DNA of 60,978 bases, filler included, from Sluysia triapertura (Eukaryota), in the NCBI GenBank assembly GCA_046118255.1. It is 5 parts of 5 records of this genome, joined end to end, with 100 filler letters (N's around TTAATTAATTAA, not from the genome) between each part and the next. Parts side by side here need not be neighbours in the genome. Positions count along the whole stretch, not along the records: positions 50,166 to 60,978 come from JBJNIA010193106.1; 4 more parts are not named here. The stretch is one strand, 5' to 3'. Both the position numbers and the translations under genes were made by a program. Position 1 is the first letter of the stretch; each line of letters starts with the position of its first letter. A model generated the notes under the pieces. The model was not told where the DNA came from. It saw nothing but the letters and a program-made list of their open reading frames with translations, and made no database searches. Shown here piece after piece: positions 3,739 to 60,978 of this stretch.

Positions 3739-3750
3739 TTTTTCTTGGTT

Positions 3751-10924: not shown

Positions 10925-10997
<73 letters not shown>

Positions 10998-11329
10998 GAT
11001 TGAATCATATCTAGTGCGTTTTAAAAGTTTGTACGCATCTATAATACATTTCATTTTGTGTACTGTTATGTTTATCTGTACGATTTTTAAATGAGCGAAT
11101 AATAATTTTATTTTTTATTTTCATTTCCATAAATGCAGTAATAGAGCTGTCTTGGTCACCTTTCAAAAGCATGCATTAATGAACATATGTCATTCGCTAT
11201 TTCTTTGGAGAGGTGAAAGTTTCATTTTTACTGGAAATAAATTAAATTAAATTATTTGAAATTAGTACTTGAGTTATACATAATGTTATGATATTTTCAA
11301 AAATAAATTAAAAATTTTACTAATTTCAG

Positions 11330-11527
11330 AACGGCTTGAATGCATTGCATATTGCTAGTAAAGAGGGATTAGTAGATTTAGTGCGCGTATTACTTGAGCG
11401 TGGAGCAGATGTAAATACTGCTACAAATAAAGGTAATACAGCTTTACATATTGCAAGTTTGGCTGGGAAAGCTGATGTTGTTAATGTATTGATAGAAGCC
11501 GGTGCTAAAGTTAATGTTCAATCTCAG
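11330..11527 (+). CDS. ANK: Ankyrin exon (two ANK repeats of the membrane-binding domain)
   Basis: TTTCAG acceptor, [13 protein letters not shown]...[13 protein letters not shown]...VNVQSQ, GT donor. The 198-nt exon matches canonical ankyrin repeats 2-3. Confidence 0.92.
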
Positions 11528-11665
11528 GTTTTACAATTATGAAATTGTTTTATTAAACTGTTTCTTAAATTAATTTGATTTAAAACTTAACTCTGTTTAT
11601 TGTCATTACTAATCTTCAAAATATTTTACAAATCGAAATGTGCTTTTTTATTACAAAAAACCAAT

Positions 11666-11774
11666 TGTTAAAGTGGAATGACCAGGATTGGAACCAGGGA
11701 GATTTTGCTACGCAGCCAGTTGCTTTCTTTCTCTGAGCTATGAGCATCGTCTTAATACTTTCAATACCCCAACA
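11666..11774 (-). mobile_element. Diverged tRNA-containing solo LTR (Helenus-like)
   Basis: Element strand TGTTGGGGTA...TAGCTCAG...GGTTCCAATCCTGGTCA...TTAACA. The TSD is not preserved. Confidence 0.6.
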
Positions 11775-14140: not shown

Positions 14141-14239
14141 AATGGCTTTACACCTCTTTACATGGCATCTCAAGAAAATCATGTCGAAGTAGTTAAATTA
14201 TTGTTATTAAATTCGGCCAGTCAGACACTTGCTACAGAT
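14141..14239 (+). CDS. ANK: Ankyrin exon (next ANK repeat)
   Basis: TTTTAG acceptor, [39 protein letters not shown] donor. 99 nt, in frame with 11330-11527. Confidence 0.92.
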
Positions 14240-16681: not shown

Positions 16682-16752
16682 CACATTATGAGCGGGTATT
16701 CTTAAGTACAGTCCATAAAACGGGTAATAATACCCGCCCCGCTCATAATGTG
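16682..16752. mobile_element. 71-bp TTAA-flanked MITE (piggyBac-type)
   Basis: TTAA-CACATTATGAGCGGG...CCCGCTCATAATGTG-TTAA, a perfect 15-bp TIR. Confidence 0.7.
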
Positions 16753-19249
16753 TTAATAATATTGTCAACTTAAACAGCTTATTATATGATACTGACTTAA
16801 TATTTTACCTTTCTGTTTTTTTTGTTGGAAGGTTACACATCTCGCCTACTTAATGAAATCATTGTAAACTCTAAAAAAGATTTAAAACTTTCAAACATTA
16901 ATTTTTCTAAAAATGGAATGACTAGAAATTTGCACTATTATGAACTAAGAGTTCTCATGTGGAACAACTATGTCATCGTAAACAGCATGACAGTACAAAA
17001 TTGGTTCATAAATGAGCCACGCAGTTACCCAGAATCAAAGAACTAAATGTTACCGTTGAGTCTGCCTAAGAATTATCGTTGATGATTGAAGCAAACAAAA
17101 TATTATAAACAAACAACTTGTGGCTCGCGAACTGTGAGGCGCCTATCAGAGTTATTTTATATTTCATAATATTTTAACAGTTATTTCTTAATATCTATAG
17201 CATCTCCTTTTTCTACTGAAATTTCTTTTTTACCTTCTGCTGAATAACACGTATTGGCAGTACACCTTTCTTTTCTTTACCTGTTAAGTCAATGATAATG
17301 AAAAGTTTAAGGTATTCTTCTCTAACTTTCTAAAGCCATAAGTATAAAAATTTAAACCTTAGTTTAAGTAAAAGATAATTTTTGTGTATAACTTATCCTA
17401 TCTTTAAAATTATCCTTTAACAATATTTATTCTTTAATATTTACATTTATCTTACGTTTGGGCTGAACACTAAAAGTTCATACAAATATAATTTTCTATC
17501 CTTTGCACACATTTATAACTTAAATTAAATTGTTTTCCTTTAATGACTTGATATTTTAGATTTAAGGCATGATATACAAAGATTTATTTAACAAATTTAT
17601 TTATTTAATTAATGTAAAGTAAACAAAATGAAATATATCCATTTTCAAAAGAAATTCTAAATATAGATGCCTTATGATAAAATATTCATTTTAATAAATT
17701 CGATATTATATTTTATTATAGCACTATGTAAATTGAACTTTATACTTAGTAATTGTATAATTATACAAAATTATAAATTGTATACAAAACATAATTTATA
17801 ATTTAAGTATCGATTAAATGTATTTTAGATTGTGTTTAATAATATCACTGTTTCATTATTTATTTGGAAATTGTCCACCTTATAATAATATCAGTAAGTA
17901 TTTTAATGGCTTTAAAATAACAATTTATAATTTAAATTAAAATAAAAATTAAATATAAATAGATAAATAATATAAAAATAGAATATAGAAGAAACCTTAT
18001 TAGTTACTAATATAAATAAATATAGCTAAAGTAGCTATTCAATTTTGGGTATGTATGCAATTAAAAATATTTATTTATTGTAAAAAGTAAATATTTAAAT
18101 TAAATTAAGTAATGAATTCTTGACATTGCAACAATAGATTTAAATACTATATATATGCAAATATTGTTATGGATATGTACTGTTATCAAACACATTGTGT
18201 TTTATTAGGTATTTGAATAAGTTCTGTTTAAAATTGTTAGACACTAAGTTTTGATGTTTTGTAAATTTTACAAATTTTTATTTTTGTGGCAATAATTTTA
18301 TAGAGATGTTTAAAGTTTAAATATTGTAGAATTATTTAATATTAAAACTAAGGATTGCTGTAAGGGTATTGTGATTTTTCGTTATAAATTTATCACCGAA
18401 TTGTTTTTTATCACAAAATTATTTACGTGATTATTATTATTTTAAATTACTATTATTATTATTCCCTAATTTTTTTTAGATTAAACCCATCGATATGTTT
18501 CTATTATTTACCTAGGTATCACAAAAAATTATTTGCTAATGGAGGTTAAATATCCACCCTAAGCTAATTTAATAGTTCAGTATTTATATAAATTTTTTCT
18601 TTGCTCGATTACAATTTAAGTTATATACACTCAGTGCATATTATCAAAAATTATAATAATTTATTACCGTTTAGTAAACATGATTCTTCCTAAAACTCAA
18701 TAATTTATTACATGAAGGTAAAATGATATAAATTAATTCAATAAAAGCTTCTGGCTCAAGTACGTAATATTTTTTAAATTCAATTATATTTTACTACCGC
18801 AAACTTAAACACTGTTTGATTTATTAGAGATTTTATTTCCGATGAAATTTCGGCTTAATGAAATAATAGTTTATAATATTTCAAATATTTATTAGGGTTT
18901 ACTATATTTACTATCTTTATGGTATGTAACAAAATAACTTAAACAAGTAAGGTATATTAATAAATTTGGGATTGCAATTTTTGTATGCATACAATTCCGC
19001 ATTAACAAAATAATAAAATAAGATGGTATAATTGTACATATACGTATAAGATTAGTATTTAACCTCTACTAAATTATTTTAATTTAAGATTACAAGATCA
19101 TATTAAAAGATACTGTTTAAAAAATTTTATGTTCATATTAAGTGGAATTTACTATTATCAAATTAAAGGATGATAAAAACTTACTAAAGTACGACTAACA
19201 ATTAGACTGTTCAAGTTAGAATGAATCAAAATATTAAGTTCCATTTTAA

Positions 19250-22557: not shown

Positions 22558-23404
22558 TAATAATAATAACCTTAGTGTTATAATAAATATTAATCGAAAA
22601 ATGCATGAATTTCTTGTTTCAGACTTTATACAAGATCTTTCTTTGATTTTCTTAATATTTCTCAACATATCTAATTGTAGAAGCGAAAGGAACTTGCAGA
22701 CTTATGGATTTGTAGTGTTGACGCTTTTTGATATAAATATTTAGTATTTTTTTGTGGTTTTAAGTAACTTGAATAACTAAACCAAATGTTTTAAGTGAAA
22801 TGATGTTTTGGCTGAAAATGTATTAAGGTGTAAATGTTTACTATGTTTTTTGAATGCTACTTAGTGTTTTTGAGTAATGGTAATGTTCGAATATTAAGGT
22901 TTAATGGTACCAGATATGGATTTATGGTGTTTAATTTGCTTTGGAGATATTTGTTGATTAATTTCGAGTGTGAATGTAATTGACTTGTTTGAGATAAAGG
23001 AATGCAAAATAAAATATTTGAATGAATTTTTTAATGTACTTTAATGGTTTAAGACGTTATTGTGATTTGGGTGTTATGAGGTGTCGAATAAATATTCTCA
23101 ATGGATCGCTTAATGTAAATTGATGTATTCTTTGTTATGAAATTGTAGGTTTGAAATATTTTGAAAAGTGAAAGTTTATTTTGATGAGTATGAAGAGAAA
23201 TAAGATATAAAAACAAGATATATAAGATATATAAGATATATAAGATATATAAAATCATATAAAGGATATGATTTTAGTTATGTTTACTTCATTTTAAGTA
23301 GATTTAAAAAAGTGTATTGTATATTTTGAAAATTTATGAGATGTTAATATATTTTAAGTAGAATTTTTGTGAAATTTATTAAGGTTAGTGAGTTGACCAC
23401 CACA
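22558..23404 (+). mobile_element. Giant LTR-like unit, copy B (3' part only)
   Basis: ATGCATGAA...ACAAGATCTTTC...ACATAT block, then a G/T-rich tract, then terminus GTTGACCACCACA (23392-23404). Confidence 0.6.
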
Positions 23405-24110: not shown

Positions 24111-25985
24111 TTAAAAAAATATAAGGTAAAAATAGTACTTAGGATAAATAAAACAAAACTTTACTATCTGATTGTTCTGTAAAGGCTTTGTCTTTGTCGG
24201 TCTTCCTTTTGTAGTACCTGTGTTGGTTTTTAAGATTATCAGTAACATATTAATGTTAGACACGTTTACAGATATACTCGTAGGATCTAAGTTATTGTTA
24301 CTGGAAGTTTGCCAAGTATCTGATAATGACTCGTTATTTTGAGAGTGAACATTTGATGAGTCTGAAATGTTACTTGCAAGGTTTGCTATCTCTGTTAAGG
24401 CATTTAAACTAGTAGTAGGTTCGATTAATGAATTTTGATTATGTTGATAAGGTCCATAACGGTGACTCAAAAGGACTGGGAATCTTTCTTCATTTGTTAA
24501 CAAACTCTCACTAATGTGCATTATTTTTTTAAGATAAATGAATCACGCGTAATTCTCATGACTTGACACATTGTTGATGAATAACATAAAATATGATCAA
24601 CCTTAGCATTCTTCAAACTTTCTCTAGTTTGTGAAAGAGCAGTATCTGGTTTTAACACATTATTAAAAGGTTCTTGTAATACATCATTTTTAACTTGTAA
24701 TCCTTTTAATTTCATATTTAATTGAGCTAATGCATCTTTTAATTCAGAAATTTCATCGTTGTTTTTAGAATCACACGAATAATTTGATTTGGTACAGTAA
24801 AAAAACGTGATTAGTAGGGTTGAAGTTGAAATTTTCGTCTTCTACTAATTGAGTTATTAACTTGGTCACGATAGTTTCTCATAAATTGTACGAATAAGTC
24901 CTAGCATGAACACCTTTGATTGTCATAAGAGACTCTAATATAGAATTGATATAATAACTACACATTGAATCTAAAGTGCGATTAATACAATGGAACAATT
25001 GATTAGGGTTATCAGATTCTGTAATCGCTTTTATAACATCTTTAGTGTATTCGATTTCATATGATTTAATATCATGTGACACGTAGACATTTGGTAATAT
25101 ATCATTATGAACTTTGACCAATCCACACAAAACGGATTCTGCCTCAAGTACTTTCTGTAATATAATCTAAACCAGGATCACGATTCACATATTTTGGGTT
25201 TGTAATAATGTTGACAAAACGAATGCAACAGAAACATAAATTTAAGTTCTCTTTCGAGATTTGACTAAGCTTTTGAATTATTCTAAGAATCGGTTCAAAC
25301 TGACCACGAATTTTCAAACTACTTGCTTCAAATAAGGCTTGTAATACATATCGATGACTACTTTTGCTATAACCATAAAGAACCATCAAAATCTCTATCA
25401 TTGTTGCAAGATCATTCAAGTTACTAGTGCCTGAAAATGTAAATGCGACATGGGTTAAAGAAGTCTCAATTTTAATCATGATAAATAAACCATAGCCAAA
25501 ATTACCAAATGCCCTCAAATCTACCAATTTCCGGAAGATTAGGCTTATCATGAATAGCAGCGATTAATTTTACTATCAAAGAAAAACCGTGATTAATTTC
25601 ATTATCAAATAATTTAATTACACTTATTGTAGAATTCTGAATAATTATTCGTACATCTTTCAAATCAGCGTTCACCTCTTCATTCTCGCATTCCTATCTT
25701 AAAACTTTGACTTATTCAGTAACTCGTTTACTTTGAGCAATCGCTTTATTATTTTGAATCATTTCTATCCTAATAGCTCGCCTTGGTCTACGTAAATTAT
25801 CTCGACTTAGTACAGAAATATTTACATGTCCCATAAATAATTCAAATAGTTTATTTATTTCATTATCGGTTAACTTATCGTAATCGGTAACTTCGTAAGG
25901 CCTTTAATCCTTTTTCTCTTCGACCTTTTATAGATAGGGACGGTTTCTTTTCAATAACTTTACTTTTTTCGTCTTTGAAATGCAT
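24111..25985 (-). pseudogene. Fragmented intronless cargo gene of unknown family (about 600 codons)
   Basis: A chain of same-strand ORFs (25144-25551, 24879-25130, 24521-24715, 24111-24521) plus coding-like sequence up to about 25985, broken by stops and frameshifts. Confidence 0.55.
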
Positions 25986-26029: not shown

Positions 26030-26088
26030 ATCATCCAATCAGGGCTTCAGAATAGACAAATCAGTAATATTGGTCCTGATTGGATGAT
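26030..26088. promoter_or_regulatory. Inverted CCAAT-box pair / hairpin
   Basis: Perfect 14-bp inverted repeat ATCATCCAATCAGG / CCTGATTGGATGAT. Confidence 0.65.
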
Positions 26089-27374
26089 AGTTGTACAAGT
26101 TAGTTTGATATACAAAAATGTGATTGCTGATGATTGACCATCATCAGTGTTGAAACATTAATGAAAATTGTAATGAGTAGTGTCAACACTGGTGGTGGTA
26201 GTAACAAGTTTTTACTGATTATAAAATCTGTACAATAATTAACTTAATAATTGATAATAATAATAAAAATAATAATATTGTTATTATTATTATTATTAAA
26301 AAGAAAATCAAAGATAATGCATAAACTTCTTTGAAAATAATATAACAAGATCTTTTCTTTTTTTTATATACTCCTTACATATAAAAAGTAAAAATAAAAT
26401 ATAAAAATTGACAAAACTGAGTGAAACAGCAACGATTACAGGGTGTACTATGCTCGAATTATCGTTGTTATTTCAATATATAAAATTGAATTCTTCAAAA
26501 CTGTATACAATTTTCTTTAATTTTCTTTAAAATGAATAAAAAATGTACTTTGGAATAAGCCTCTGAGCAATAATTGTTTTGGATGAATTGGTAAGTATAA
26601 TTAACCTATGAAGATATAATAATTGATTTGAGTCTTGAAATAAAATAAAGAATGTTAGAATAGGTTCTTCGATATTGATTGAAGTTCATATTTGAAAACA
26701 AAATTTATGTATTGAAATATCATGGGTAAAAGGCTTATTGAGAAGGTTGTAATTTAATGAATCTAAAAGAACAATTACAATACAACTATTGGTATATTAA
26801 AGATGTTATTATGCTATGTTTTGTGTAATTAAATTGTTTGATGTTTTTGGTGTTGTTGTACTGTGTTGACGATGATTATGCATAGATGAATAGTGCATTT
26901 ACCATGTTGTAATTGATTCAAAAATGTAAAGTAAATATTTTATGCGTTTGAGTAGATTTATTGGTGTTATAAAATGGTATTAAATATAATTGTGGTTTAT
27001 GTGTTTGTGGTTGTGATTTGGTTTAAGCAAATAAGCTATTGAATAAATGTTATTAAATATTAGGTATTAGTTGTTAAAGTGTAGTGTAAAATAAAGGGTT
27101 CGAAAGTATTGAATGGATTGTTTTTACTGTGTGTTGGATTATTGTGAATGTCGAGTAATGTTTCTGGTGGATTAGTTGATGTAAATTGTTAATGTTGATT
27201 ATAATTGTGGTTTAAATGTTGTGGAATTGAATATATGGTTGTTAGGTATGATGACAGCGAAAGGAAGAAAAAAAGGTATTAGTTTGTAATAAAATTTAGT
27301 GTTTATCAAGGTTGGCCACTACATTGTAAATTACATGATGTAATTAAAATCCTGTACGATACATTAGAATATAC

Positions 27375-27708: not shown

Positions 27709-28520
27709 GAATATACTAAAAACTTTAGTGATGAATGAAGTAGCTGTTTTCTGAAGGTGCAAGAATAGATACTATTGATTTTTGGAGAAATCAAATGAGT
27801 TTGTATCAATGCACGTAATTGCTGCAATTTCTTTTGGACAAATAATAGAAAGGCAGCACCATTTATAATTCATAAATATTATGGTTCTGATTTTCTACAA
27901 GATCGTGTTTTATATGTCCTTTGATTGATGATAATGAAAGCAAATGTATTATTTGGAATTCTCGTCGGGTTCATATAGAAAAATAGAAACGTGAAAAAAT
28001 TCAATTGTATCAGTTGGTTTTAGTTTGAGTCATGATATTTATGGGAAAAAATTCCGTGATACTTCGTTCATTTCAAAACAAGAAGTCCAATTAAATAATG
28101 ATTCTAATCTTGATGACAATTGTGAGATCTGAAATTAAAAATAATAATATAAAATAACAATAATGAAATATTAATATAATAAAAATAATAAAAAATTCGC
28201 TTGCTCATTTAAATTAGGTATTTTTTGGTGATGTTATTTGGCAATATCCGTTATATAAGGAGGTATTTTTCACTAAAAAAGGATCTAATTTGTTTATAAA
28301 TCTTGAATATTATCTTGTAGTATTTGAATTTGGAATTATTGAAATACAAAAAAGTGTTTCTTTGGAATGTAGGACTATGATTATTGAGGCCGTTGAATAC
28401 TATTTAATTTGGATATTGAATTTTTAACATTAAACAATAATAGGTAAGTACAATATCGTAAAAAATCAATTGTAATTTTGAAATTAACAAAATAAATTTT
28501 TTCAAGTGTTTTAGTATTTT

Positions 28521-28670
28521 TATTGTAATTCATTGTAATCCATTGTAATTCATTGTAATCCATTGTAATTCATTGTAATCCATTGTAATTCATTGTAATT
28601 CATTGTAATTCATTGTAATTCATTGTAATCCATTGTAATTCATTGTAATCCATTGTAATCCATTGTAATT
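28521..28670. repeat. 10-bp minisatellite (CATTGTAATY) x15
   Basis: Direct tandem repeat with no spacers. Confidence 0.95.
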
Positions 28671-33211: not shown

Positions 33212-33555
33212 CCAATCAATTCACAATCTCACAACCAAACATTCTCTCACACAAATGATCCAACTTCTTTGAGAATCAGACCGACAATAACAACTTTGAC
33301 AAGTTCATGGTACGATCTGTCAAACTTTATTAGGCACAAAACATAGAAATCTGATTTATTATCAACCATCATATCCTTTTACTTTACTCAATCTATTTTT
33401 ACTTAAATCACTTCTCACATTAAAATAACAATCAACAGTACTGTTAACATACATAAAAATAATGAATTTAATTTCACGTTCTATTATTTAATTAATTTTC
33501 TATTTTTCACACCCAATTTTCTAATGAAAAATGTTTTAAGCTTCTTATTCTCAAA
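33212..33555. repeat. Interspersed C/A-rich repeat, same family as 6786-7060
   Basis: Multiple long shared words with 6786-7060. Confidence 0.75.
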
Positions 33556-33655: not shown

Positions 33656-34219
33656 TAATATATTGTGTTAGGTACTTTTTGTTAAATTTGTTACTAATTG
33701 TTAATTCGGGCATTAAGCCCTTTTCGTTAATGTCTAAATTTATTAATAGTCAATTTTTAAACTTTCTTAAAAAGAAAAAAAATAAAATTTTTAATAATAA
33801 TTTAAACAATAAAATATTTCCCACAGCTCTTCAATAATTTTTTCATAATACTTGTTTCAATTAATTATACTCGAAATTAAATAATTAATGGTTATGCAGT
33901 TTTGTTTTATATTAAATAGATTATCACGATTGAATGCTATTTTAAACTGAATTCGTCTATGTGTAATAGTGGGTGCGTTGAATGTGCTTGATGTGTGTAT
34001 TGTGGTTATGATCTTATCGTTTAGGAGTTTAAGTTTACCGTTGTTATTTTTGTTACACGTACTGTTACAACGGCTTTGATCTACATAACTATAATTATGA
34101 CAAAATCGGTGCTTAAGGCACTCGAAAATTTCTTTAATAAGAACAATATTTGAATAAGAATAACATGAAAAAATTGTATTATACGCACATAAAAAAGATT
34201 GATAAAGATTGTTGACACA

Positions 34220-35026
34220 TCAAAAAATTGAACAAGTATAATAGTAAAAACTTACATTCACTATCAACCGCAAGACTAAGTTTCTACTCTTTCCGACATT
34301 TTGAACAGCAAAATTTATCTCACCAGGCTCAAACATGATAAAAACTTCATACCAAAGATATACAACAACGTAGGTAGAACAGATTTTAAAATTATTTAAA
34401 ATTTCAGGTCGATCTAAACAATTATAATTATGCATTGTACCTAAACTTCCAACCTTAAGGTGAGCCTCAATTTGGAATTCGCAAGGGAATCTTGCATATA
34501 CATGACAAAGCATAAAAATAAGAGAATCATCTCAAAAATCTAGTTTGACGTGAAAATACATCATACGAGTAAATTTTTCATGGCAGTAATGCATCATACT
34601 CTCAACATACACGACATAAACAAACATACTTCGGTGAGGATCATATGTAAATTTCAAAATAAAAATCAAAAAATAAAAAATCGAGCAAAATTTTAAAATT
34701 CTTAAACCTTCGAACTCGCTCTTGGTACTAAGCAAACGATATTCCCGTCTAAGTCGGTTATTGGTGGGAAAATGGATTACAAAACTAAAATAAATAATGT
34801 TACACCTTCTATGAACTTTAAAAACTATGTAACGTGAGCTTTTCTTTAGAATAGGGATACCATCGCTCAGTACCAAGTGCTGAAGTAACTTCAATTCAAT
34901 CCAAAATTGTATAGCAATATTAAAATGCGATAATTTCAATATGGTATGAATAAAAGTTGCTATCCGGATGTGACCTGTAGCATTTTCGGCTGATACTGCA
35001 ACGATTTCTAAAGTCTCTTTAGTCAT
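34220..35026 (-). pseudogene. Intronless frame of about 268 codons with one internal stop, unknown product
   Basis: ORFs 34532-35026 and 34220-34513 are in the same frame, separated by a single TGA. Confidence 0.45.
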
Positions 35027-36179
35027 CCTATGTTTATCGTAGTTTCAAATATCTTAGACAATATTTGTCAATTTCTAAATCGGACACCTGCTTTTTTTAA
35101 TTTTAGTTTGTCTTTATATACACATTATTGTACGTATAATTACTATTTTATTACTTTTTTGCAGAAATTATTATTATTTTATTATCATAAAAGTTGTTAA
35201 TTAAAGAAACAAGAATGAAATTGACAATAATTATAGAGTACAATAATTAAAACTGTACTTGTTAATTATTTGCATTTGTATGTGTGATACTTCAATGAAA
35301 TGTTTCAATAAAAATAGAAAAGAGAAAAACTTCATTAAAATTTTAACTTCCCAAAGTTTAATATTCCATTTGTTAATTAATTTAATTATAATGATTTAAT
35401 TATAGATAACGAATTACAATGGTGAAACACGTTGACATATATAACGTAATATAATCAATTTTAATTAATTTTATTCTTGATAAAATTAAATTTTTATGTG
35501 TTATCATACTTCGTAAAAATATCTACACTAATTAATGCTCACTAAGAAATCATTTTATAAATTATTATTGAAATTAACATTTGACGTACTATTAATAAGT
35601 TATCCATTATATCAAAAGTTATTATTGGAGATAAGTTTTATACTTTATCAAATTTATATTCAATTTAAATTAATGTATTTCGTAACAAAACATTGTTATA
35701 ATCATTATGTTAAATTTTACTAAAGTGTAACAACTCTGAATAATTGCTGGGTAACAATATGATAAATATTCGACGGAAATTATTGTTGATTATTAAAATT
35801 GGCCGGCACAAAACCGACTCTAAGGAATAATCATGCGCTGTCGATTTCATTGCAATTATCTAAACACTATAGAAACAATCACATTTTTGATATAACACAA
35901 CGAAAATGATATGAAGTTGTGTTGTAAGAAGAATATTTCAATACATTACTAATTAAATCTTGTATTCTTTTAGCAACTAAACTTTGTTTTTGATTAATTA
36001 ATTTTATTGTATTTGTCACTCTATTGTTAATTGGATAATAACATTTATATATACTGTGTCACCCTGGAATTGAGTAATATATTAATTTTTTAATTACAAA
36101 ATTGATTTATTTTAATTATAATTGATTATTGTATAACATATAGTAATAGTAATAATAATAATTCAATAAATAAAAATAA

Positions 36180-37244: not shown

Positions 37245-39000
37245 TGTAGTGGTCAACTTTTATAAATTAAGATTAAAATAAATCTCACTAAAAAAATAAC
37301 AGCTATACTCTGTAACCATAAACATTACACATTTAATCTCACAAAACAATAATTCACAATCATAATACCTCACCAACTTATATCCAACAACAAATCAATC
37401 TATATCTCAAACATCTCCAACTCAATAAACTATTACATCCAGCCCAAACAATTTATAACATTCACTCACCAAACAAGCCATAATCACAACATAAACCTCA
37501 TAAATCACAAACACAACAACACTCAAATAATGCTAATAAACATTTCAGAAACATAGATCATCTCACCTAAAACTATAATCAACAACAACGGTCTAAACCC
37601 ACTTCACACAACCATACTCATCATCCTCAATCATTTGTAACAACATTATAATATATAAATTTATGTCGCAATCATCACTTAAAATCAAATTAACTTCAAC
37701 CTTTTTAACAAGCATTTTAAACTTAAACCTTTTAATAAACATTTCAAATCTAATGTATAGACCTTGTTTTCAATTTACAAAATTTCAATTAATTTCAACA
37801 AATTATCTTTAACACTTTCCATTTCACTTAACCATAACCATTACACAATTTTCAAAGACATCTTAAATAACTTTAAAGAAATTCGTTATAACACTGTGAA
37901 GCAGCAACCACAAACGATACACCATGTATACCTTATCACTATTGCTCCTTCACAGTTTGTCAGTTGGTTTTGTACCTTTTTCTTCACTTTTAGTTTATAT
38001 GTAAGAAAATCATAAGATAAAGAATAGAAAGATCATGTTATCGACAGATTAAAGACTTTTATGCATATTTATTAGTTTTATAATTATTATAATTCTTTTT
38101 ATTATTATTATTATAATCATCATTATCAGTAGTATTTTTATCATTATCATTGTCATTGTTAGTATCATTTTATCATTGTAACAAATTAAAATTTTGGTCA
38201 CCGCCACCATCAGTAGTGACACTTCATTCACTACTGATGATGGTTAATTAACTAGATTAATACATTAACAAAAAAGGTGACATACATCGCCCAATCAGAT
38301 TATTTCTACTCTAACATTGTAACAGCGAATCTGATTGGGCAGACGAGACAAAATCAAATTAGAAGCAGACAATCACAATTATTTTGGCAACAAAAATTTT
38401 CAATATTAACATTGGAGCTAAAAATAGTACAAGATTATTCGTTTGTATATGAATTTCAATTAGCAAGATTTTGGTAGCTTTTTCATAATTAATTTTTACT
38501 GATGCAAGTTTATCAGCAGATTAGTGGCGAACTTAAAAGACAATTTGTTAGATTTTTACATTTAGCATCAATGATGAAACCATCTAATTCATTACAATGT
38601 ATATTATCTAAATCACCAGGCTATCATACCCCATAGTCTTTTGTTTTTAGATTTGGATTGTAAAATTTGGTAATTGATATTTTAAAAAATTCTGTTAAAA
38701 GTAAAATGATATTACGTGATTTTTATGCTTTTAAAGATATTATAATATTATGTTAATTAAAGATTTACGGATCCAAGTTTTATAAAACATGTTTTTAAAG
38801 TTACTTATAATGTTACACTAATTAAAGACATTTTGTATAATTTACTAGAACTAAATGTGTGAAATAATCTTTTAAAGGGTGTGATAGATACTAATAATAT
38901 TGTTTTAATTAAAGATATTTTACATAATTTGTTAGATCTAAGTGTACTAAAGAACGTTATGAAAGATTTTAAAAATATTTGCATTCTTTTGCTAAACAAA
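37245..39000 (-). mobile_element. Giant LTR-like unit, copy D
   Basis: On the plus strand: TGTAGTGGTCAAC (37245), C/A-rich tract, TTTATATGTAAG (37994), AAAGATCATGT (38028), TTATGCAT, CCAAT hairpin at 38289-38340, then decayed coding-like sequence. The far end is uncertain. Confidence 0.65.
38289..38340. promoter_or_regulatory. Inverted CCAAT-box pair / hairpin
   Basis: Perfect 13-bp inverted repeat GCCCAATCAGATT / AATCTGATTGGGC. Confidence 0.65.
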
Positions 39001-49698: not shown

Positions 49699-50065
49699 TG
49701 TAGTGGCAACACTCATAACTTTAAATTAATCAAAATTTCATATTCAATATCCACAAATTAAATTTCACTAAAATCCAATTTTAAAATAATCACACTTTTT
49801 ACTATCCAACTTCACCAACACAAACATCATAAAATAACATTCGATATTTACAACACCTCATCAATTCACATATATCAACAATTTAACTAACATTTTAACC
49901 ATCCATAGCATAACAAACTTTGACATTTAACCTCGAATAATTCACAACATTCATTCACCAGATATTTCAACAAACAAATCACAATCACAATATAAACTTC
50001 ACAAATCATAAATATAATAGCATTATCAAACAACGCTAACAAATACCTCAGAAACATAGATCATT
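49699..50065 (-). mobile_element. Giant LTR-like unit, copy E (terminus only)
   Basis: TGTAGTGGCAAC then a C/A-rich tract. Shares TCAGAAACATAGATCAT with copy D. Cut by the contig end. Confidence 0.6.
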
Positions 50066-50165: not shown

Positions 50166-50726
50166 CTGTGAAGAAGTCTTACCTATCGCCTCTTTCTTCT
50201 CTCACTACTCAACCATTCTTAGTAACACTCCATTCTTGTAAAACTCTTTCTTGGCCCTCGGCGCGGTTCATCACAGTACAAGTATCCAGCCAATTACCGT
50301 TTCCAGCATGCAGTGGTATCCAGTATCCAGTTATAGTGACATCATTTTGACATGAGTCTGAAATCCTATTTTTATGAAAACCATTATTTTGTATACAGCC
50401 TTCGGGCAAAGGTTTTCGATGTTATAAATAATATAGTTTTCGTATTATTATTATTATTATTATTAATGCCAATGCACATGAAAGAAGTTTTCTTTGATGT
50501 CGGTTGTGTGGAGGCACTTTGTCACTCTGTGCCGAATATTGTCAGATCGTTGGTTGAGGAACCTCCTCCATGATCATCCTGAGTTGCCTTCCAGGTCATT
50601 ATGGATGGATGGTACCTACAACAATGCCATATTAAAAGAAAATGATGCAAGTTGCCTCTTACTTGTATTAGGTACCAGATTCATTTCTGTGCCTCATCCT
50701 TGTGAATAATGATTAATACGACTACG

Positions 50727-51410
50727 ATGTTCGGTGATAATGATGAAAAGCAAAAAGATGATGAAAATATTGATGAACCTGAAGAATATGACGAAAATGA
50801 TAATGACCAAGTTGTTGATGAAGATCCAGCTGCTCGTTAAGAAGATGTTTGTGAGGATGAATTAGAAGAAGGTGATTGTAAAGATGAAAATCCAGTTTAT
50901 GAAGAACATAAAGATGATACTGATGAGGAAGATAATAAGAATAATACCCATCATGCTGTTGATACCTCACCTCAGAGGGAACAGCATATTGGTAATGCAG
51001 CTGCTTGTGATGTTTCTGATGAAGACGAAGATGATAATGACAATGATGGTCCAGATGTAGAAGATGACGCCATAGAAGAAGAAGATGATAATGATGATAC
51101 GGATGATGACCCTGATCCTGCTGCTGCAACTTCAACACAAAGAGAAGAACAATATTGCATAAGTCATATTGGTGGCGATAGAGATTTCGCTGTTCGTGGT
51201 TACCAGACAGTAGTTGTTCCTGTTCCAGTTGTTCCTGTTTGGAATGAAGATGGTACTGTTGATGATGCACCTAGTCCTACCCGTGTTGTTGCATTTTTGG
51301 AACCCGAAGATGGATCTTCAACTGTTAGAGACAAGGGCCGATTGTTAGTATAAAAATGGACTGAAGATAGATCGGCTGTTCGAATACTCTATTCCAGGTC
51401 TTGTTCTTGA
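50727..51410 (+). pseudogene. Asp/Glu-rich reading frame with two internal stops
   Basis: MFGDNDEKQKDDENIDEPEEYDEND... runs 228 codons in one frame, with TAA at 50838 and 51351. Confidence 0.55.
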
Positions 51411-52149
51411 CCCAAAAAGATCCTTTCCTGCTGCTACTGCTAACGTTATTTTATTATTACTCTGCTTGATCTGATCTTTTTTCTCTGTATGTCTGAGCTG
51501 TAAATGTGTGTGTGATGTATTTTCTTTCATCTAGTCCAAATATTTTAATCATTTTTATCCTCTTTATTGTTGTTGTAGTTGTCGTGCCCTCTCTTTTATC
51601 CCACGTTTCAAAAGTACACTTAGGGTTTGGTTCTAGTAATAAGGACCTTCACTAGTCTTCGTTGCCCAGATATCGTTCTTGTTACTTCCTTGTGCGACCC
51701 ATACTATATGAACCCCATCCTTTTCAAGTTCCATTCTTGGATACCTCTCGTGCTGCCCTACGATTCGTGCAGTAATCTGCATCAAATCTCATTTTTATTT
51801 ACTTGTCATTGATCCTCTGCGTCGCAAAAACAATCAAGCTACCAATGCGATATGGAAAGGGCTTTCACAGCGCATCTATTTCCTTCTTGACATTAAGGGC
51901 ATTACATTTCTCGCAAAGTCACATTTCCCTTTAAACTACAGAGTAATTCCTATGACTGTGGAGTCATGATTTGTGGGCATTTGGAGGCCTTAGCTTTACG
52001 CCGCTTCCTTATGGACATAGATCCACGAGTCCTTCGCTGCTTCTTGAGGCCGGAACCTAATTTCTCTAAAGAGTCAATCAAATCTAGTCCTCAGGATTTC
52101 CAATCAACGTCCTGACATGTTAATCAAAAGACTGGGCTTGTCCCACAAA

Positions 52150-55100
52150 ACAAAAATATGGATGCTGCAACAGTCCAATATATCGCCCCACCTAAGACGG
52201 ATTATCAACCTCCGCCAAAAGCAATCAACCCTCAATGAACTAACATTAAGCTTACATTCACCCAAGATGTTAAACATATGAGTACAGCTGCCCCTAGGTC
52301 AGCGCCAACATCGAACAAACTCGTGATCCCTAAATGGACGGATATTAAAGTCACAGGACCTCAGACTGCTAAGCCCAATCCCTAGGTTAATCAGGAATAC
52401 CAAGGCGACAACTTCAGAACCTAAGCCATCCTAAGACTGCGACTGTTAAAATATGGAATCCTAAAGTCTCTGGACCTAGGAACAACAATGAATGTAAAGT
52501 TCTTTTCCAAAAAGTGACTGGAAGAAAAAACCATTAGGTACAATAATCTTCAAATCACAATTGCCCCTATTACTAACCCTCCTGTCTAGTGATGAAGTGT
52601 ATTCTGAGACTCCTGTGGCAATTCCGACCGTCACTGAGGTAGCCATCCTTAACCCTAATGATAATCAGAATGCTACAACCTCAACCTGTGAGTACCTTTC
52701 CAATCCCTTCTAACAGCATACCTCCTGTGATGCCCACTGGCAACGATCCAACAACTTCTATCTCTGAACTCCCTCCTATCGCTACCATTGTTGATCCTAT
52801 TAATATTCAGCATCAAACAATTTCTCCTGCACCGACTGAGACCTATGAAATTATTAGTCTTCACAATGAATCTATCTCCACGACTCCTCACAGTGTCCCT
52901 GTAGAATCCTCTGTTACTTCAGCTTTCGAAAATGGTATTGATCTTGATGAATGTACCACCTGTATTTCATCAACTTCTTGCAATAAGTTGCATGATAATG
53001 CTCAAATAATTATCTCTCCTAAGGAATACATTAAATTCTTGACTGCACTATGAAAGGTCTTACTATTAAGAACCGCTCTGATTTCAAGGAAGTCCATACA
53101 CCAGTTCACCACCACCTTGAGTAATCTAAAATGCATATGCGGAGAAATCAAGACATAGGATGAGTTTATCATGACCCACATTGAACACACTAATCTTATT
53201 AATAGTAACATTCGTGGTGCTGTTAAAAAAGTCACCGTCCTACCCCTTATACCACAAGGAGATACGCAGATCCTGTGCACGGCCTCATCTCCTACCACTT
53301 TTAGGTGTACTTCCTGCGGGATCACTCCAAAACTTAATCCTAATGATTGCAATAGCCTTAAGCGTCACCAACTTAAGAAGCAAAATTTTAAAGGAACTCA
53401 AGTCATTGTTAAGTGCTCCTGCTCCCTTCTTTTCGATAGTCTGGTTTCTCTTTCCAATCATATGGTAACACATACTGCAGACAATAAATTGACTCTTACT
53501 CCAACTACTAAGGACCTCGATTACATCCACTGGTCAGATTGACTATCCCTGGGCGCGATCATGACTTTCTTTGATGCATTCTTTCTGACCCTAACTCAGT
53601 AGTAATTGATTCCAACACTACTTCGCAATGTTCAACAATGAACAAGCATTTCTCAATAATTTTCTCCTACCGAAATGCTCAAGTTGGTAACATTTCTACT
53701 GGATTTTGATTCTTCTTATTTTCAATAGAGATTCTAAATTCTGTGTATCATTGACCCATTACACTCTTCTCCACGTCACGTGTCCCTTTTATGTGACTTT
53801 CTTTAAAATGTTATGATCGCAAACACTACACTACCAGTGTATCCAGCTAAACAAGATTTTGTATACAAAGTCATTCCCTATCTAACTCAAATTGGTCCAA
53901 CTGATGGCGGTCCCTTCATTTGTGACATTGCCTTGAACTAATGTTTTCCCAACCTGATATCGATGCTACAAGGGAAATACTTTATAATATTGTTGCTCAC
54001 TCTATTAAACTTCCACCTGACACGAAAGCTAAACACTCACATCCTTCTCTTAAGTACCTTTGTAATAAAATTAATAAGGATGACCTTTTTGTCGATGAAG
54101 TCTTTTTGGAATTCTGTGTTTTAATACATAGATTGTTTCCACACAAATTTTCCAACATCCTGTTTCAGTTTAAAAAATCTCACACTGAACCAAACGAGGA
54201 AATAAAAAATGACCTGGATAAAGCCTTCCAGCATCTAAGGCATCCCAATTAATAACTGGTACTGCCTGTCCTCCAGTTACACATTCAGCTATTGAAATTT
54301 GCGATTACTACTGTTCTGGTACTGTTCCTCCTTTTGACCCATCACAACTTGTATATTGCCTTGGTATACTAATTATCCAATCACTGAACAAGAAATCTTG
54401 GCTACTTTGAAATTCTGTAAAAATTCCTCGCCCAGCACAAACAAATATTAAAAATGTTGATCCATCAGGTAAATTATTTCTATCCAAAAAATGCTGCGGT
54501 CCTGGATGAACTTTACCACCTTTCTTATAAAAAAAACCTAATAAATTTCACCTTGCACTTGAGGTCTCATATTGGCGGTCTATTGCTATACTTGATTCCA
54601 CATATCTCATTTTTACTAAGATAATTAATGACCGTCTTCTCTCCTGAATACATGCTGGCAACCTTATCAGTGCTCATCAGGCTGCGTCTTCCATTTCACT
54701 TGCGCAATCTAAATATTAATACGCACGACAATCCAAAAACCTTCCCCAATCTGTAGGATATGACGAAAAAATAAACCATCTATTCAAGGATTGAAAAACT
54801 TTCTTTTAAACAATTAGTTCTTTTATGCACACAAAAATCACGGCGGTTTAAGCCTGATATCTTCTTACGATGACGGTATGTGCCAGAATATAATTTGCGC
54901 CTTCGAACAAACCTTGCCTTGCATGAAATTCTTCGCGTCTCCAATGAGGGATTAAATAAAGTCGAAAACATTTCTGATGCTCTATCTTGACTGAATGGTG
55001 GTAAGTCCGATAAGCGTACACGACTTCTGACATGGTGGACCAAAATTCGACAATCTATCTTCAATTTGCACCGAAAATACCGAATTTCTGCTAGCTTTTT

Positions 55101-56458
55101 TACTGTGAGGACAAAATAAAATTAAATACCAAATGCGACATCCTTGGTGAAAATAAAGTCAAATTAAATAGGTTTCATAAAGAGAAAGTAGGTAAATATC
55201 TGCATGGATTGATTAACATTTCCAATAGCAACATTTGGAAATCCCACAAAATCCAAGGTCTCTTTGACGAATGCTTCATGAGAAGTCTTCTATTTGGTCG
55301 CCCGTTTTCTTTACACTTAAACAACCAGGGTTGGATTTTTATGATTAAGATTCAGATGAGTATTCTTAAGCTTAATTTCTCTACAAAAAACATTCGACGG
55401 CATCATCCCATTACATGTCGTTGGTGTGGCTTTGAAAGGAAAACAATTTCCCATGTATTATGTATTTGCCCTCGAACTATCATTGGCCGTACAGTCAGAC
55501 ATAATAAGATTCTAGAATGTTTACATAGCAAACTTAAACAAATGGGCTTCTCAGTCAAAATGGATACCCAAACCCTCTTATTGGTGAATATCGAAGACCT
55601 GATACAAAAGCGCAAGGTACCAATTCCTTCCAACTTTTTCTCATTGACGTAAAGTCGCTGATTGATGATTATGAAAAATTTAAGGCGGCCCGAACTTTCA
55701 GTATTACGAAATATTCCGACTACAACTTAAATGTCAAGTTTCCCTTGACACGTTTGTCGTTGGAGCACTTGGTTCTCTGGATCCTGAAAATGATATCCTT
55801 CTAAAAAACTAGGCTTCCGTATGGCCGATATAACTGGTCTAGCACGCCACTTTATCAAATTTTCCATTGAATCCTCCTTTAATATCCACAAGGACCATTC
55901 CCTCTAATATCTCACATAACTAATATTGTTGTCATATGTGACTTAATCTTGGTATTTTAATGAGTTCATTTATCCTCTATCTTTGGGGCTTTTAATCTTC
56001 AATCTTTAATCAATATATCATACGACAACTGATATTCTCTTTCATATTTTTATTTTCATTTCCTTCTTATTCTTTTCATTTTGCATTCAATGGTTTTTTA
56101 TTTTTATTTATCTATTTTTTCCCTTATTTATTTTCCTATATTTTCATTTCTTTATTTCACCCACTTAATTGTGTGTCTGTGATTTATCATTGGTGTGATT
56201 GTGATTTAATATCTTTCTTTGTTATTTCTTACTTATCAATGGTATGCTTGGGGCCCCATAGTTCAACAACAATTACTAACATGTTCCTTATCACAAGCAG
56301 CACAAGTGGCAGCAGCAGCACGAATATCAATTTCTTAAATGGACAATCAGTATCAGCCTTGTTACATTAACTACTTTTTATATAAGTATGATCCATTTAT
56401 TTATATTTATTGTACCATATTATTTGATTATGTAAAATAAAAGTTTTCAATTCAATTC
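52150..56458 (+). mobile_element. Decayed RLE-type non-LTR retrotransposon (NeSL/R2-like, with Ulp1-like protease)
   Basis: C2H2-type fingers at 53130-53480. Protease-like WILI...IIDPL...QIGPTD(G)GPFI at 53700-53940. RT segment WRSIAILDSTYLIFTKIINDRL at about 54570. CCHC CRWCG...TISHVLCIC...RHNKI, then RRPD...IDVK and FVVGALGS at 55415-55780. 3' UTR with AATAAA (56436) and a (TTCAA)n tail. The RT core appears deleted and the 5' end is uncertain. Confidence 0.85.
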
Positions 56459-56523
56459 ATCGAAATGCGCAGCGAGAGGTTCCGGGTTCGATCCCCGGCC
56501 AGTCCATTTTATGAAATCTAACA
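56459..56523 (+). mobile_element. 3' half of a tRNA-containing solo LTR (Helenus-like)
   Basis: ATCGAA...GGGTTCGATCCCCGGCCAGTCCATTTTATGAAATCTAACA, matching the 3' part of 1825-1964. Confidence 0.8.
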
Positions 56524-56950
56524 CTAAAATTTCTTATATAATGTCCACATTTACCACAGTTATCACAAATTATTTATCCATCTATATTAGTTTGCGTCAT
56601 GTTATTGTTTTCATTGGGCTTTTACTTCTATTTCTATAACTTTTTATTATTGATATTAGAAATAGGTGACCATCTTGGTGCTAGTCTTTGTTCTTAATTA
56701 GATGCACCATAGTTGCTTATTATACTATTCTGGAGCCCTTTGATCCTATTATTATTTCCTTTAAAATCATTCGCATTATAATTGTTTGGATTACCCTATA
56801 ACTATTTGAATTACCTCTACGCGGGTCGTTAAATCTGTTATAGTTATTATTTCTGTTATCATAATTAGTAAGATTGTTATATTTATCGTAATTCGACGGA
56901 TTATTAAATTTATTAGTATATTTGGATAAATAATTGTTATATATTTTGCC
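56524..56950 (-). pseudogene. gag remnant with zinc knuckle
   Basis: An N/Y/R-rich stretch followed by ICDNCGKCGHYIRNF (CX2CX4HX4 knuckle with the last Cys lost). Confidence 0.6.
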
Positions 56951-57299
56951 AATAGAGAAATTTATTACAAATTCAAAAAATCCGTTTCATATTAATTCCA
57001 AAACTTTATACGTAAATTTATTTTCACTAAATATTAACAACAAAAATTTTAATTCAAATTGTTTATCAAGTTTATATTTCATTCTAAGCTGAGAATATGC
57101 TGCCGTTACATCAGTTATAAAGAATTTAAAATAAAAATTAAACAAATAATTTAGTTTTATCGCATAAAAACTAAGTTTTACCTTAATATAATCGTTGACA
57201 GCAAGGCAGTTTTCCAAGTCGAATTTATATGAACTCGTCAAGGAGCCAGAATTTTGTTTGTTATAGATCTCGAACCTGTTGTATTTTGTCATTGCATTA

Positions 57300-58107
57300 T
57301 CATCATTGACATTAAACCTAATGAACATTTGATCGGCTCCATAAGAAATACATAGGTATAATAATGGTTCATGTCTGGTGAATGATAATATTGTTGACTT
57401 CTGCATTTACCAGACTTACTCGATTGAGTCCTGAGAATTCCAGATCCAGCATTTGAGATGTCTTTAGATTATGTGTACTAGCGATATCGGCCGCTACAAC
57501 GATCATATAAAAACTCAACTCATATGTTAGCATGTCACTCTTCATTATCGCATATGTGGCAAAATAAATTTTATGTCATCTTGAACAAAATTGCTTTTTC
57601 CAAACTTGAATTTAAACTTGAGGTATTGAGGATGTTTTTGTATACATCAGGATCTAGAATCAGTTTTAGCACTTCTTTACCGAAAACTTTAAATATTGAT
57701 TGGTAGTATATTGTTGTTAAACGATACACAATGTTTAGCTTTTCAAAATTCAGTTCCACTAATTCATCATTAAACTTTTGTGTAATTTTCCGTTGCATTT
57801 CGATTTTCTGTTCACCACTTAACGAATCAACTTTATTGATAACAACTTTCATTTTGACATTTTTACCAACCTCACACGTGTGAGTAACTAATAAGCCCAA
57901 TCCACTTACTGGTTCTGCAAATTCACCCAATACCTCGATATTGCCAACAATTGCTCAAAATGCTTCAAATAAATCGCCATTATAAATCATTGTGTCAGTC
58001 ACATGAAATTGTCCAGGAAAATCCCAAATGCGAAGCTCAATAAACGAGCAGCCCGAGACATTGGTTTTCCTTATTCTATTCATATTTTCCAGAAACGACC
58101 CTCATTG
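57300..58107 (-). pseudogene. RRAGC: Intronless, divergent RagC/RagD (Gtr2) GTPase copy
   Basis: FLENMNRI...SFIELRIWDFPGQ...VVINKVDSLSGEQKIEMQRKI...LTTIYYQSIF...NSSLEKAILF, then after a frameshift KIYFAT...DMLTYEL. Collinear with RagC/D. In-frame TGA at 57955-57957 and no G1/P-loop. Confidence 0.88.
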
Positions 58108-58179
58108 AAAAATTTTTAGCTTTTAATTTTGTGAACTTTTTGCTATTTTTGCTGAAAAATCCTTTTCCCACTGCTATTG

Positions 58180-58234
58180 GCTGTCCAATCAAAAGAATAA
58201 AATGAAGCAATATCAGTAATCTTAATTGGACAGC
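58180..58234. promoter_or_regulatory. Inverted CCAAT-box pair / hairpin
   Basis: Perfect 10-bp inverted repeat GCTGTCCAAT / ATTGGACAGC. Confidence 0.6.
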
Positions 58235-58792
58235 ATATACAATATACAGGAGAAATGATAGTATGTGTGCACTGAATTGCCATCAGTCAACATTTAATAG
58301 AGTAACATTAATTGATTACATGATGACAGATTGAGTTATATGATGTAATATATTGATTAGGTAGACACACTACCACTATCAATGGTGATGATAACTGCAT
58401 GTATGAATTGATGTTACAATTGTTAGTGGTAGCTGCAACGTTAATAATTTGGTACACAAAATAATGAAAATAAAATAATAAATCCTTTCAAATTAAACAA
58501 AATCATTCTTTATTAATAAAAAGAAACTTCTCGACATAGTTAATTTTTATTTTCTCATCATATAAATCTCAAGTGTCGAAAGGCTGCAAGCTTATGATGT
58601 CTTGAGGTGTAAATTTGACAGGTTGAGATGTGATTGTGATTTTAAAGCTATTAATGATGTGTAAAAAATGTTTTAATTGAGTATAAAAATGTGGATAGTT
58701 TCGACAAGAGGTAAGGTTTTGATGATGTAAAAATGTGAGTTAAAATATCTCGAGAGAATTTTATGTACTTTATTAGTTTTGGCCACTACAGG

Positions 58793-58803
58793 TGGTAGCA
58801 AGA
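58793..58803 (+). promoter_or_regulatory. Putative primer-binding site for initiator tRNA-Met
   Basis: TGGTAGCAAG begins 2 nt after the ...CA end. The complement of the animal tRNA-iMet 3' end is TGGTAGCAGAG. Confidence 0.55.
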
Positions 58804-59734
58804 TTAAATATCAGTAATAAATCTTGTTAATAATGATGATAAATATTGTTCTCGGCCTAAAGATTCATGTTTTATTAAATTTTGATTACATATAATTTAT
58901 ATTCAATCTCATTTTAATGATTTTTCTCGTTTATAATGCTTTTAATTTTGAAATAGTTTTGATATTACATTATTCTGCCCAATCTTTAATTTAATTTAAT
59001 TTTAATCGAAAATAATGTTATTAATTTTTAATTATATACTCGTTTTATTCAATCTAAATTTAATATAATATAAAATTTAATGTTATATTGTCTTTATAGA
59101 ATCTCATTTAAAAATGATTTTTTACTGTATTTCATTTTAAACCTAGTTACTATTTGTTATTAACGTTTGAATTTATATTAACTCTATTAAATCTCATTTT
59201 AAATTGATATAAAACATTATAATCTTAATGAGAATGATTTTAATTTTATTTTAAATAAATTTAAATTAAATGGATTTTAGATTTGATTTGAAAACCTAAA
59301 AATGTAAAATGAAAAATTGAATAAAATATTACAAAACGTATTTAAATTTGAGATAATATAAAATTAACACCAATTTACACCAAAATATTAAAAATTGAAA
59401 TAATTTAAGGAAAAACAGAAAATCATAGTTTTTGTATATTGTTTGATTCGTATAATACAATTTTTATCTGACTATTATTATCATATGCAAGTTTTACTAT
59501 AAAATTTACCAACTATTAACCATTATTATTGAATTATTGACTATTATACAGTATTACTGAATGTAATATAATTTCTACTATAATGTGATTTTTACTACTG
59601 ACTATTAATGATTACTATTTGTATTATAATTAACTTTAATGACAATTGAATAATTATTATAAACCAAAAAATATATAAATAGACGGTAGAAAAATGTACG
59701 TCACACAATATTGTAAAATCTCACTTCTGATTAT

Positions 59735-59865
59735 TTGTGATTAATTAATTGCTTGTCATTGTTCGAAATTAATTATTTGCTGATTATTTTGCCGATCGTT
59801 CGAGATTAATTAATTACTGATCTTTGTTCCAAATTAATTAAATATTGACTATTGTTCGAGTTTAT
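59735..59865 (+). repeat. Degenerate short tandem repeats (GTTCGARATTAATTA core) in the putative retroelement leader
   Basis: About four copies of the core at roughly 25-35 bp spacing. Confidence 0.55.
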
Positions 59866-60923
59866 ACAATTTGTGACTAACGTATTGAATTAAGGTAAAT
59901 ATTTAGTTAAATTTTTTTTGGATTAATATTGATAATTTAAATTTTCATTGGTTCAAATTGTTAACTATAACTGTAATATTCATTTGTATAAATTAATTAC
60001 ACCGTCTAAATAAAGTTTTACTGACTCTCTGTTCATATTTAATTAAAGGGGAATTGAAGATAGAGCTCATAAATTAAAATAAAACGATATAAAAATTTAA
60101 ATGAAAATTAAAGATTTGGTAAAGTGAATAAAGTAAAGCAAATATTTGATAAGGTAAAATTGTAAGACTAACACACAAAAACTTAAAAAGACAAAGACAA
60201 TTTATAGAAGATAGGTATTTTCATCTCAAACACAGATAAAGTAAAGCCATTATATTGATATAAGGTATAGAAATTACCTTAAAAATAAATAAAGCATAGA
60301 CAACTATTTGTAAAGCGGAAATATCATCCGATATAAAGAGTTTACTTAAATGCATCAAACTCTTAAGACACATAATACATAAGAGATTGGTACTATATAT
60401 AAAATTAAATATAAAATTAGGTTATATTATAAAATAGTAAAAAAACAATACAATTTCAGAGTATTTTTTAAAGAAAAAAGTAAAAGCGGTCATTGTACGT
60501 TTAGTGTTAAACTCAGAAATGAACGACAAAAGAGAAACATTGATTTATGTGTATTAAATATTATCATGTTGATACAGTATTTCTATTTAGACAAGCTCTC
60601 AATGTGATAATAAAGAAAATGTAATGATCTTTAAAATGTTGTCATATTTGAAATATATCGTCTTCTATTTAATAAATCATATTTGGTTTCAAATTAGAAA
60701 TAAAATAAGTGAAATATCAGAAGGATTTTTTTTATTAATAATTGTATTTTATTTTTATTATTTTGTATCAAATTTCTTTTCTTTCAATTGTTTTTGATTT
60801 AGGAAATTTTATATTTATTTTGTCGCTTTTCGGTGATAAATTAATCTTTGGATTCAAAATTAAAATAAAGAAATAAAATTAATGTGTTATTATTTATATT
60901 TATTGCTATTAAATATAAAAAAT

Positions 60924-60928
<5 letters not shown>

Positions 60929-60978
<50 letters not shown>
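60929..60978. repeat. (TA)n/(TG)n microsatellite
   Basis: Dinucleotide run at the window end. Confidence 0.9.

Follow-up and report, generated by a model that had tools for sequence, protein, structure and literature searches.

In the Rag GTPases the replacement of Asn by His in the guanine-binding motif is a family-defining trait, and Leu207 of Gtr2 is required for dimerization (PMC5618229). Capture of host genes by LTR retrotransposons is already known, and template switching is described as a route by which such elements take up partial mRNAs (PMC5408686). Also known already are planarian Burro elements with apoptosis and ubiquitin domains: these giant Gypsy-like LTR retrotransposons carry host-like domains of the MATH, BIR, BCL2, ankyrin and SUMO-like types, and the review that treats them mentions env homology and, in one planarian, decaying fragments (PMC6431247). 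Planarian elements of this kind are reported as abundant and PIWI-controlled (PMC11410931, PMC8532177). Additional ORFs running antisense to the element are described in the plant Gypsy elements Retand, Grande and RIRE2 (PMC11963269). In the literature that we searched no Rag GTPase was found as retrotransposon cargo. The locus described here, from Sluysia triapertura, is in our judgement probably a decayed copy of a multi-copy, planarian-type LTR element in which a truncated host RagC/D mRNA was captured in antisense and has since been carried as a weakly constrained passenger.

The window, by which we mean the whole stretch of 60,978 nucleotides analysed (five parts of five records of assembly GCA_046118255.1, joined with filler), is AT-rich, with 21–40% GC per 2-kb bin, and contains intron-split host genes (that of a scramblase, at 29.9 kb, and one with a WW-domain exon, at 39.6 kb). 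Repetitive sequence in it includes a pair of repeats (6786–7029 and 33213–33497) that are 71% alike and a tandem array of about 15 units of 10 bases at 28520–28670. The RagC fragment sits in the last contig (50166–60978), to the right of a decayed non-LTR element of R2/NeSL type (50700–55720, plus strand) that is recognizable by remnants of a zinc finger and of a restriction-like endonuclease. For the endonuclease region the match to R2 proteins has E = 0.002; the segments scanned over 50700–55720 gave no reverse transcriptase domain. A motif near 51.9 kb in the same element resembles that of a SUMO protease. An Rfam search of 50166–60978 returned nothing. tRNA-like SINE copies with a common tail are present at 56456–56523, 1251–1318 and 1890–1965, with very high contig depth in the one public sequencing run that was found (run X1), although neither ARAGORN nor Rfam calls them. 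Another high-copy repeat, with a summed depth of 6,000–18,000, lies just to the left of the RagC unit at 56000–56680.

The RagC/D-derived fragment itself (57462–58095, minus strand) corresponds to approximately residues 92–305 of human RagC and consists of the G domain without β1, the P-loop and α1, followed by the first half of the roadblock domain. An earlier note, made from the sequence of the window, had recognized an intronless RagC/D homologue here, and this was borne out: the Pfam family Gtr1_RagA (PF04670) scores 59.3 bits, where the cut-off is 22, over 57571–57954 (minus strand), and residues 92–270 of human RagC align to the fragment gap-free with E = 1e-32. No intron-sized gap interrupts the 211 codons; intron loss is nevertheless inferred, as no RagC host gene of S. 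triapertura was found. Identity to 146 homologues is 35–42%. In frameshift-aware alignments against four homologues the match begins at the FLE segment (58095) and in three of them it ends between 57462 and 57432, so that homology stops near 57460 and the extension of the homologue to 57300 in the earlier note had to be abandoned. The frame is broken by one in-frame stop (57955–57957) and by one frameshift near 57575, and because of these the window copy is a pseudogene. On the sense strand no run of seven or more A residues follows the fragment (56600–57460), although an old tail may have decayed.

The claim that the homologue starts at the FLE segment and is missing G1 also stood, since a scan for the P-loop (G1, Arg-Arg-Ser-Gly-Lys-Ser) in the 200 bases upstream gave no significant match (P = 0.09), with a score of 23 against 17.8 ± 2.9 in the null and a possible maximum of 138. 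A hidden P-loop at an SGK-like triplet near 58165 was likewise tested and rejected. The G motifs that had been listed as retained were upheld in part. WDFPGQ, which fits the WDxPG of G3/switch II, is present, as is a G5-like LTTIY; NKVD is also there, but it is not a Rag motif, as the fragment has Asn at the position in G4 where Rags carry His. Similarly, the roadblock sequence holds for the first half, which aligns, but not for the last ~75–85 residues, which went undetected in both pairwise and HMM tests (P = 0.65); the HMM test also disposed of a likeness to the late roadblock strands that had been spotted by eye near 57350. The fragment does retain the residue that corresponds to Leu207 of Gtr2, together with the following helix. 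Single-sequence AlphaFold models of this piece and of a second cargo piece discussed below (in unit E3) reached pLDDT values of only 37 and 38, respectively, and were set aside.

Beyond the 5' end of the fragment lies an inverted CCAAT-box hairpin (58176–58234) whose arms, 58180–58189 and 58225–58234, pair perfectly over 10 bp (z = −3.1), in agreement with the hairpin placed next to the cargo in the earlier note. It includes a short ATTGG/CCAAT palindrome (58176–58189) and is likely to be a bidirectional promoter. The first ATG and the CCAAT at 58180 are indeed 75 bases apart, the spacing that had been noted for the start of the gene, but in the window copy this ATG opens just nine codons. On the other side of the hairpin is an R/U5-like part (58235–58790, plus strand) with AATAAA sites, a G-skewed tail and a terminal motif ending in CA (58777–58790), as well as a weak copy of a block common to four other units in the window. 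Two bases past the CA end comes a PBS-like 8-mer (58793–58800, plus strand) identical to the first eight letters of the tRNA-Met primer binding site as printed in PMC3587641, after which the match diverges; the chance of such a match is 1.8e-4, a figure covering six termini and four offsets for this one tRNA, and the site occurs at this terminus and is absent from the other five. On the non-cargo strand one thus reads the hairpin first, then AATAAA, the G-rich tail and CA. To the left, the multi-copy unit continues over 56935–57461 (plus strand), a putatively U3-like part with no recognizable Rag homology and with a candidate TG start at 56935. Because the end of the terminal motif is followed by the 8/8 match to the tRNA-Met site, this arrangement probably represents a 5' LTR that measures ~1.9 kb from a candidate start at 56935 and has the RagC piece, in antisense orientation, within its U3, a placement on which the earlier note was silent. 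Just inside the PBS-like site, at 58850–59300, a unit of ~140–146 bases is present three times in diverged form, with a summed depth of 15,000–60,000 in run X1; this may be a tandem repeat in the interior of an abundant element. No match to gag, pol or env was obtained in 122 segments scanned, with only 2.2 kb following the PBS-like site; no second LTR was found for any unit, the contigs of ~11 kb ending before a partner could appear; and no convincing target-site duplication was seen at six units. Because gag/pol, paired LTRs and a target-site duplication were not found, membership of the Burro/Gypsy elements is unproven.

The 14-letter terminal motif ending in CA occurs eight times in the window at three or fewer mismatches, against 1.0 expected, and six of these occurrences end G-skewed tracts, which defines six units (E1–E6, E6 being the RagC carrier). 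An inverted CCAAT hairpin is found in three of the four testable units (z = −3.1, −5.0 and −5.5), E1 having none; hairpins of the E6 form are also present at 26030–26086 and 38287–38343. Five units have a weakly conserved AT-rich block in common. There is no significant overall alignment of E6 to the other five, and the units are therefore at best distant families whose kinship rests on short motifs. Unit E1 (2719–5291, plus strand) has a single CCAAT box at 3810, flanked by minus-strand ORFs of 343 codons (2719–3750) and 131 codons (3891–4286), and its terminal motif ends at 5291; neither ORF has a Pfam match, and the ESM Atlas leads for the longer one all score below 0.9. Unit E2 (22558–23404, plus strand), with a G-skewed tail and terminal motif, is cut by a contig gap. 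Unit E3 (26030–27323, plus strand) runs from a CCAAT hairpin to the terminal motif and has a cargo ORF piece (25147–25563, minus strand) in the same slot as RagC relative to hairpin and terminus. Over 25147–25900 (minus strand) stops and changes of frame interrupt sequence resembling the GBD/FH3 region of Diaphanous/FHOD formins. ESM similarity of the piece to formin GBD/FH3 is 0.96, with 205 features in common, whereas its match to Pfam Drf_FH3 (E = 0.006) falls below the cut-off, a PDB search was negative, and PDB and Pfam gave no confirmation of a GBD in the reading frame upstream of the FH3-like piece. We regard a Diaphanous/FHOD formin GBD/FH3 origin as likely, which would make this a second fragment from a small-GTPase pathway in the slot. 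Unit E4 is inverted (37245–38345, minus strand), with its terminal motif at 37245 and hairpin at 38287–38343, and has no long ORF near the hairpin. Unit E5 (49699–50065, minus strand), also inverted and cut by a contig gap, is 69% alike to E4 over 213 bases. The idea that E5 and E6 are two ends of one inverted-repeat element was dropped, there being no similarity beyond the motif and no target-site duplication. The earlier note had placed the RagC piece in the same position as other cargos; among the other units that have sequence in this slot (E1, E3 and E4), a host origin is indicated for E3 and not for E1, whose 343-codon ORF is without a match, or for E4. Elsewhere in the window, three adjoining stop-free stretches of 103–170 codons (33857–35044, minus strand), with no Pfam match at cut-off, are possibly another element cargo.

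Copies of the unit were assessed in run X1, which contains 34% of the sampled words; no RNA dataset was among the runs listed. To the 550-base RagC core 124 contigs map, 70 of them at less than 95% identity (12 at 99% or more, 42 at 95–99%, 36 at 90–95% and 34 under 90%), the single contigs listed there having a depth of 15–23 and one variant being common to up to 17 contigs. Summed depth, counting contigs matched at 80% or more, is 286–768 in every bin of 56912–58735. The flank is represented by one identical 367-base contig of depth 19 that ends at 56978, to the right of which the summed depth is 324–459. A contig 88% alike spans 58027–58218 and so links the start of the ORF to the hairpin in another copy. 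Summed contig depth is not copy number, and the multi-copy claim relies on the count of distinct diverged contigs, which would correspond roughly to some tens of copies. The capture into a multi-copy element proposed in the earlier note is therefore sustained by these contigs, and the single copy with a poly(A) tail that was named there as the contrary case was not what we found: there are many copies, and no A-run of at least seven. That the fragment is not a lone processed pseudogene but the product of capture and amplification is well supported.

The donor was likely a flatworm, because Macrostomum RagC is the best match among 50% representatives and because the flatworm state is found at five of seven diagnostic columns (the state of other animals at one). 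The tree places the copy with the flatworms at a split that has 100/98 support, but its branch, of 10 changes per column, is too long to trust. No triclad RagC was labelled as such among the 120 matches listed in each of two alignment searches, which returned host Rags; a word-index protein search with the fragment drew 313 candidates, none of them a relative at E ≤ 0.001, and a metagenome locus search yielded 306 pattern matches with none confirmed.

Variation among the copies was used to distinguish selection from drift. There are 64 variant sites, of which 40 are listed; these 40 include one in the stop, which was excluded, leaving 39 for classification. At the listed sites the near-fixed differences comprise four synonymous and six non-synonymous changes (2.9 synonymous expected), and variants common to several copies are synonymous at 6/29 sites, against 6.8 expected neutrally, and non-synonymous at 23. 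The resulting dN/dS among copies has point estimates of 0.96–1.17, and values of 0.4 or below are rejected (P < 0.01). At the 29 non-synonymous variant sites the other copies are nearer to host RagC in 20 cases and the window copy in two, with seven ties, and therefore erosion continued inside the family. Conservation was scored at 82 columns that are kept by 80% or more of flatworm Rags and likewise by 80% or more of the Rags of other animals; of these the window copy retains 43, compared with 74–82 in the 146 homologues. Of the 39 changed columns, 33 need one base. The spectrum of the changes is varied (G>A 9, A>G 7, T>A 6, C>T 5), and A>G hyperediting on its own was therefore rejected as the explanation for substitutions that look conservative and create few stops. 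The earlier note had pointed to many conservative substitutions with few disruptions. As regards substitutions the excess is marginal (P 0.02–0.13 over four models of neutral simulation), but the scarcity of disruptions is real for indels, of which there are three relative to host orthologues when 12–18 are expected (P ≤ 0.003), an expectation taken from two in-genome ratios (from the X1 contigs and from two repeat pairs) and assuming an inferred divergence of ~0.3 per site. For stops the deficit is borderline (one against 2–6 expected, P 0.016–0.40); at 57955–57957, 57% of the depth is without the stop, and none of the 39 classified variants is a stop. The indel shortage hints at past constraint on an open frame. 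A further result, that no indel reaches a 10% share among copies (P = 0.005), was set aside because at high depth that threshold hides single-contig indels, and gaps of this kind are visible in the contig tables. Over 57576–58125, 15 of the 29 variants common to copies are G/A on the cargo strand and two are C/T (P = 0.013), whereas the bias over all 64 sites has P 0.06–0.07; in seven of eight informative cases the other copies are nearer to host RagC at the sites concerned. RNA editing, reverse-transcriptase wobble or a transcription-linked bias could account for the G/A excess.

In the reading that we favour, template switching during reverse transcription would have put a partial flatworm RagC/D mRNA, without its P-loop part, into U3, where the captured piece would adjoin an inverted CCAAT promoter able to fire both ways, and the unit would then have been copied many times along with the LTR. 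The frame may have stayed open for longer than neutral decay predicts, perhaps by way of a translated antisense transcript, and yet residues for nucleotide binding and for the Rag fold would have been lost stepwise at a neutral rate inside the family, a combination that makes a weakly constrained passenger likely. The passenger model explains the indel deficit incompletely, and this deficit, with that of stops, speaks for a functional element gene, in which a P-loop-less RagC would dimerize with RagA/B through the retained β7–α8 surface and shift TORC1 in stem cells, acting as a mimic or dominant negative that favours the element, with the fast amino-acid change reflecting a new role or conflict with the host. 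Retention of the Leu207 equivalent, the ATG 75 bases from the CCAAT box, the absence of the stop from more than half of the depth and the second likely signalling cargo, the formin-like piece of E3, all fit this proposal. It is contradicted by a dN/dS of about 1 with a marginal conservative excess, by the change of nearly half of the conserved columns, mostly by one base and with a mixed spectrum, and by the undetectable second half of the roadblock fold; loss of β1 also takes a central strand out of the G domain. We consider the functional gene unlikely, and the substitutions lend no support to the selected, nucleotide-insensitive Rag mimic suggested in the earlier note. That a working mimic existed in an ancestor is improbable to the same degree, as it would need to fold without the P-loop strand and with half of its dimerization domain.

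Equally unlikely, in our estimate, is that an ordinary LINE-made RagC retrocopy inserted fortuitously into an LTR or another repeat and multiplied with it, never having had a role, so that the likeness of slots would be partly coincidence. The neutral pattern of variants and the R2-type non-LTR element 1.5 kb away agree with this, and 5' truncation is typical of LINE retrocopies, but no A-run of seven or more follows the fragment, indels are too few, and ORFs occur in the same slot of E1 and E3. Orientation of the element is a separate question, because the motif starts with TG on the cargo strand and the G/A excess among the common variants is what editing of a cargo-sense RNA would give. On this basis the element might be read in the direction of the cargo, with the TGTAGTGG-like motif as the 5' start of the terminal repeat, the hairpin as promoter and RagC as the sense ORF of a non-autonomous element. 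As the PBS-like site, AATAAA and the G-rich tail are all on the opposite strand and the strand bias over 64 sites is not significant, we hold this to be very unlikely. Finally, it is extremely improbable that the locus is single and that what look like copies come from alleles, from somatic mosaicism or from other organisms represented in run X1. Only one run is involved and depth does not equal copy number, but 70 of 124 contigs are below 95% identity, individual variants recur in as many as 17 contigs, and the flank is a single identical contig.

The ladder of diverged copies documents the decay of a captured gene, and a recurring antisense slot inside LTR-like units, with two different host signalling fragments, would make it testable whether such elements meddle in host pathways. 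The significance is limited because, on present evidence, carriage as a passenger is more probable for the RagC piece than manipulation of TOR. It is a quite unlikely, more far-reaching proposal that a bidirectional CCAAT hairpin serves planarian LTR families for the antisense expression, from U3, of host signalling fragments that are interchangeable, with the P-loop-less RagC of one family tuning TORC1 and the formin GBD/FH3 piece of another possibly intercepting Rho–formin signalling. Were this long shot correct, the retrotransposons would possess an accessory-gene toolkit in the style of complex retroviruses, with a P-loop-less RagC binding RagA/B in stem cells.

Compared with RagC/RagD (Gtr2) proteins, the fragment is similar in its PF04670 score above the cut-off, its WDFPGQ and G5-like LTTIY, its first roadblock half and its 35–42% identity, and differs in being without a P-loop, in having Asn for the His of G4, in keeping 43/82 conserved columns, in its broken frame and undetectable second roadblock half, and in its many copies. 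With Burro elements, compared by description only, the locus has in common a likely flatworm host, LTR-like ends, a host-like regulatory domain as cargo and decayed fragments, but Burro cargos are described as sense-strand polyprotein domains or accessory ORFs, whereas here the cargo is a GTPase fragment that is likely antisense inside the LTR. The Retand, Grande and RIRE2 elements provide the parallel of an extra ORF that is antisense to the element and adjoins an LTR; as described, those ORFs are situated between pol and the 3' LTR, show family-wide conservation (TRP28) and are of unknown origin (PMC11963269), and unlike them the RagC piece is a recognizable host gene in neutral drift. LTR retrocopies of the maize Bs1 type (PMC5408686) are similar in that a partial, intronless host mRNA is carried in an LTR element and re-amplified, and the present locus differs from these in its animal host, its Rag GTPase cargo and the likely U3 position of that cargo.
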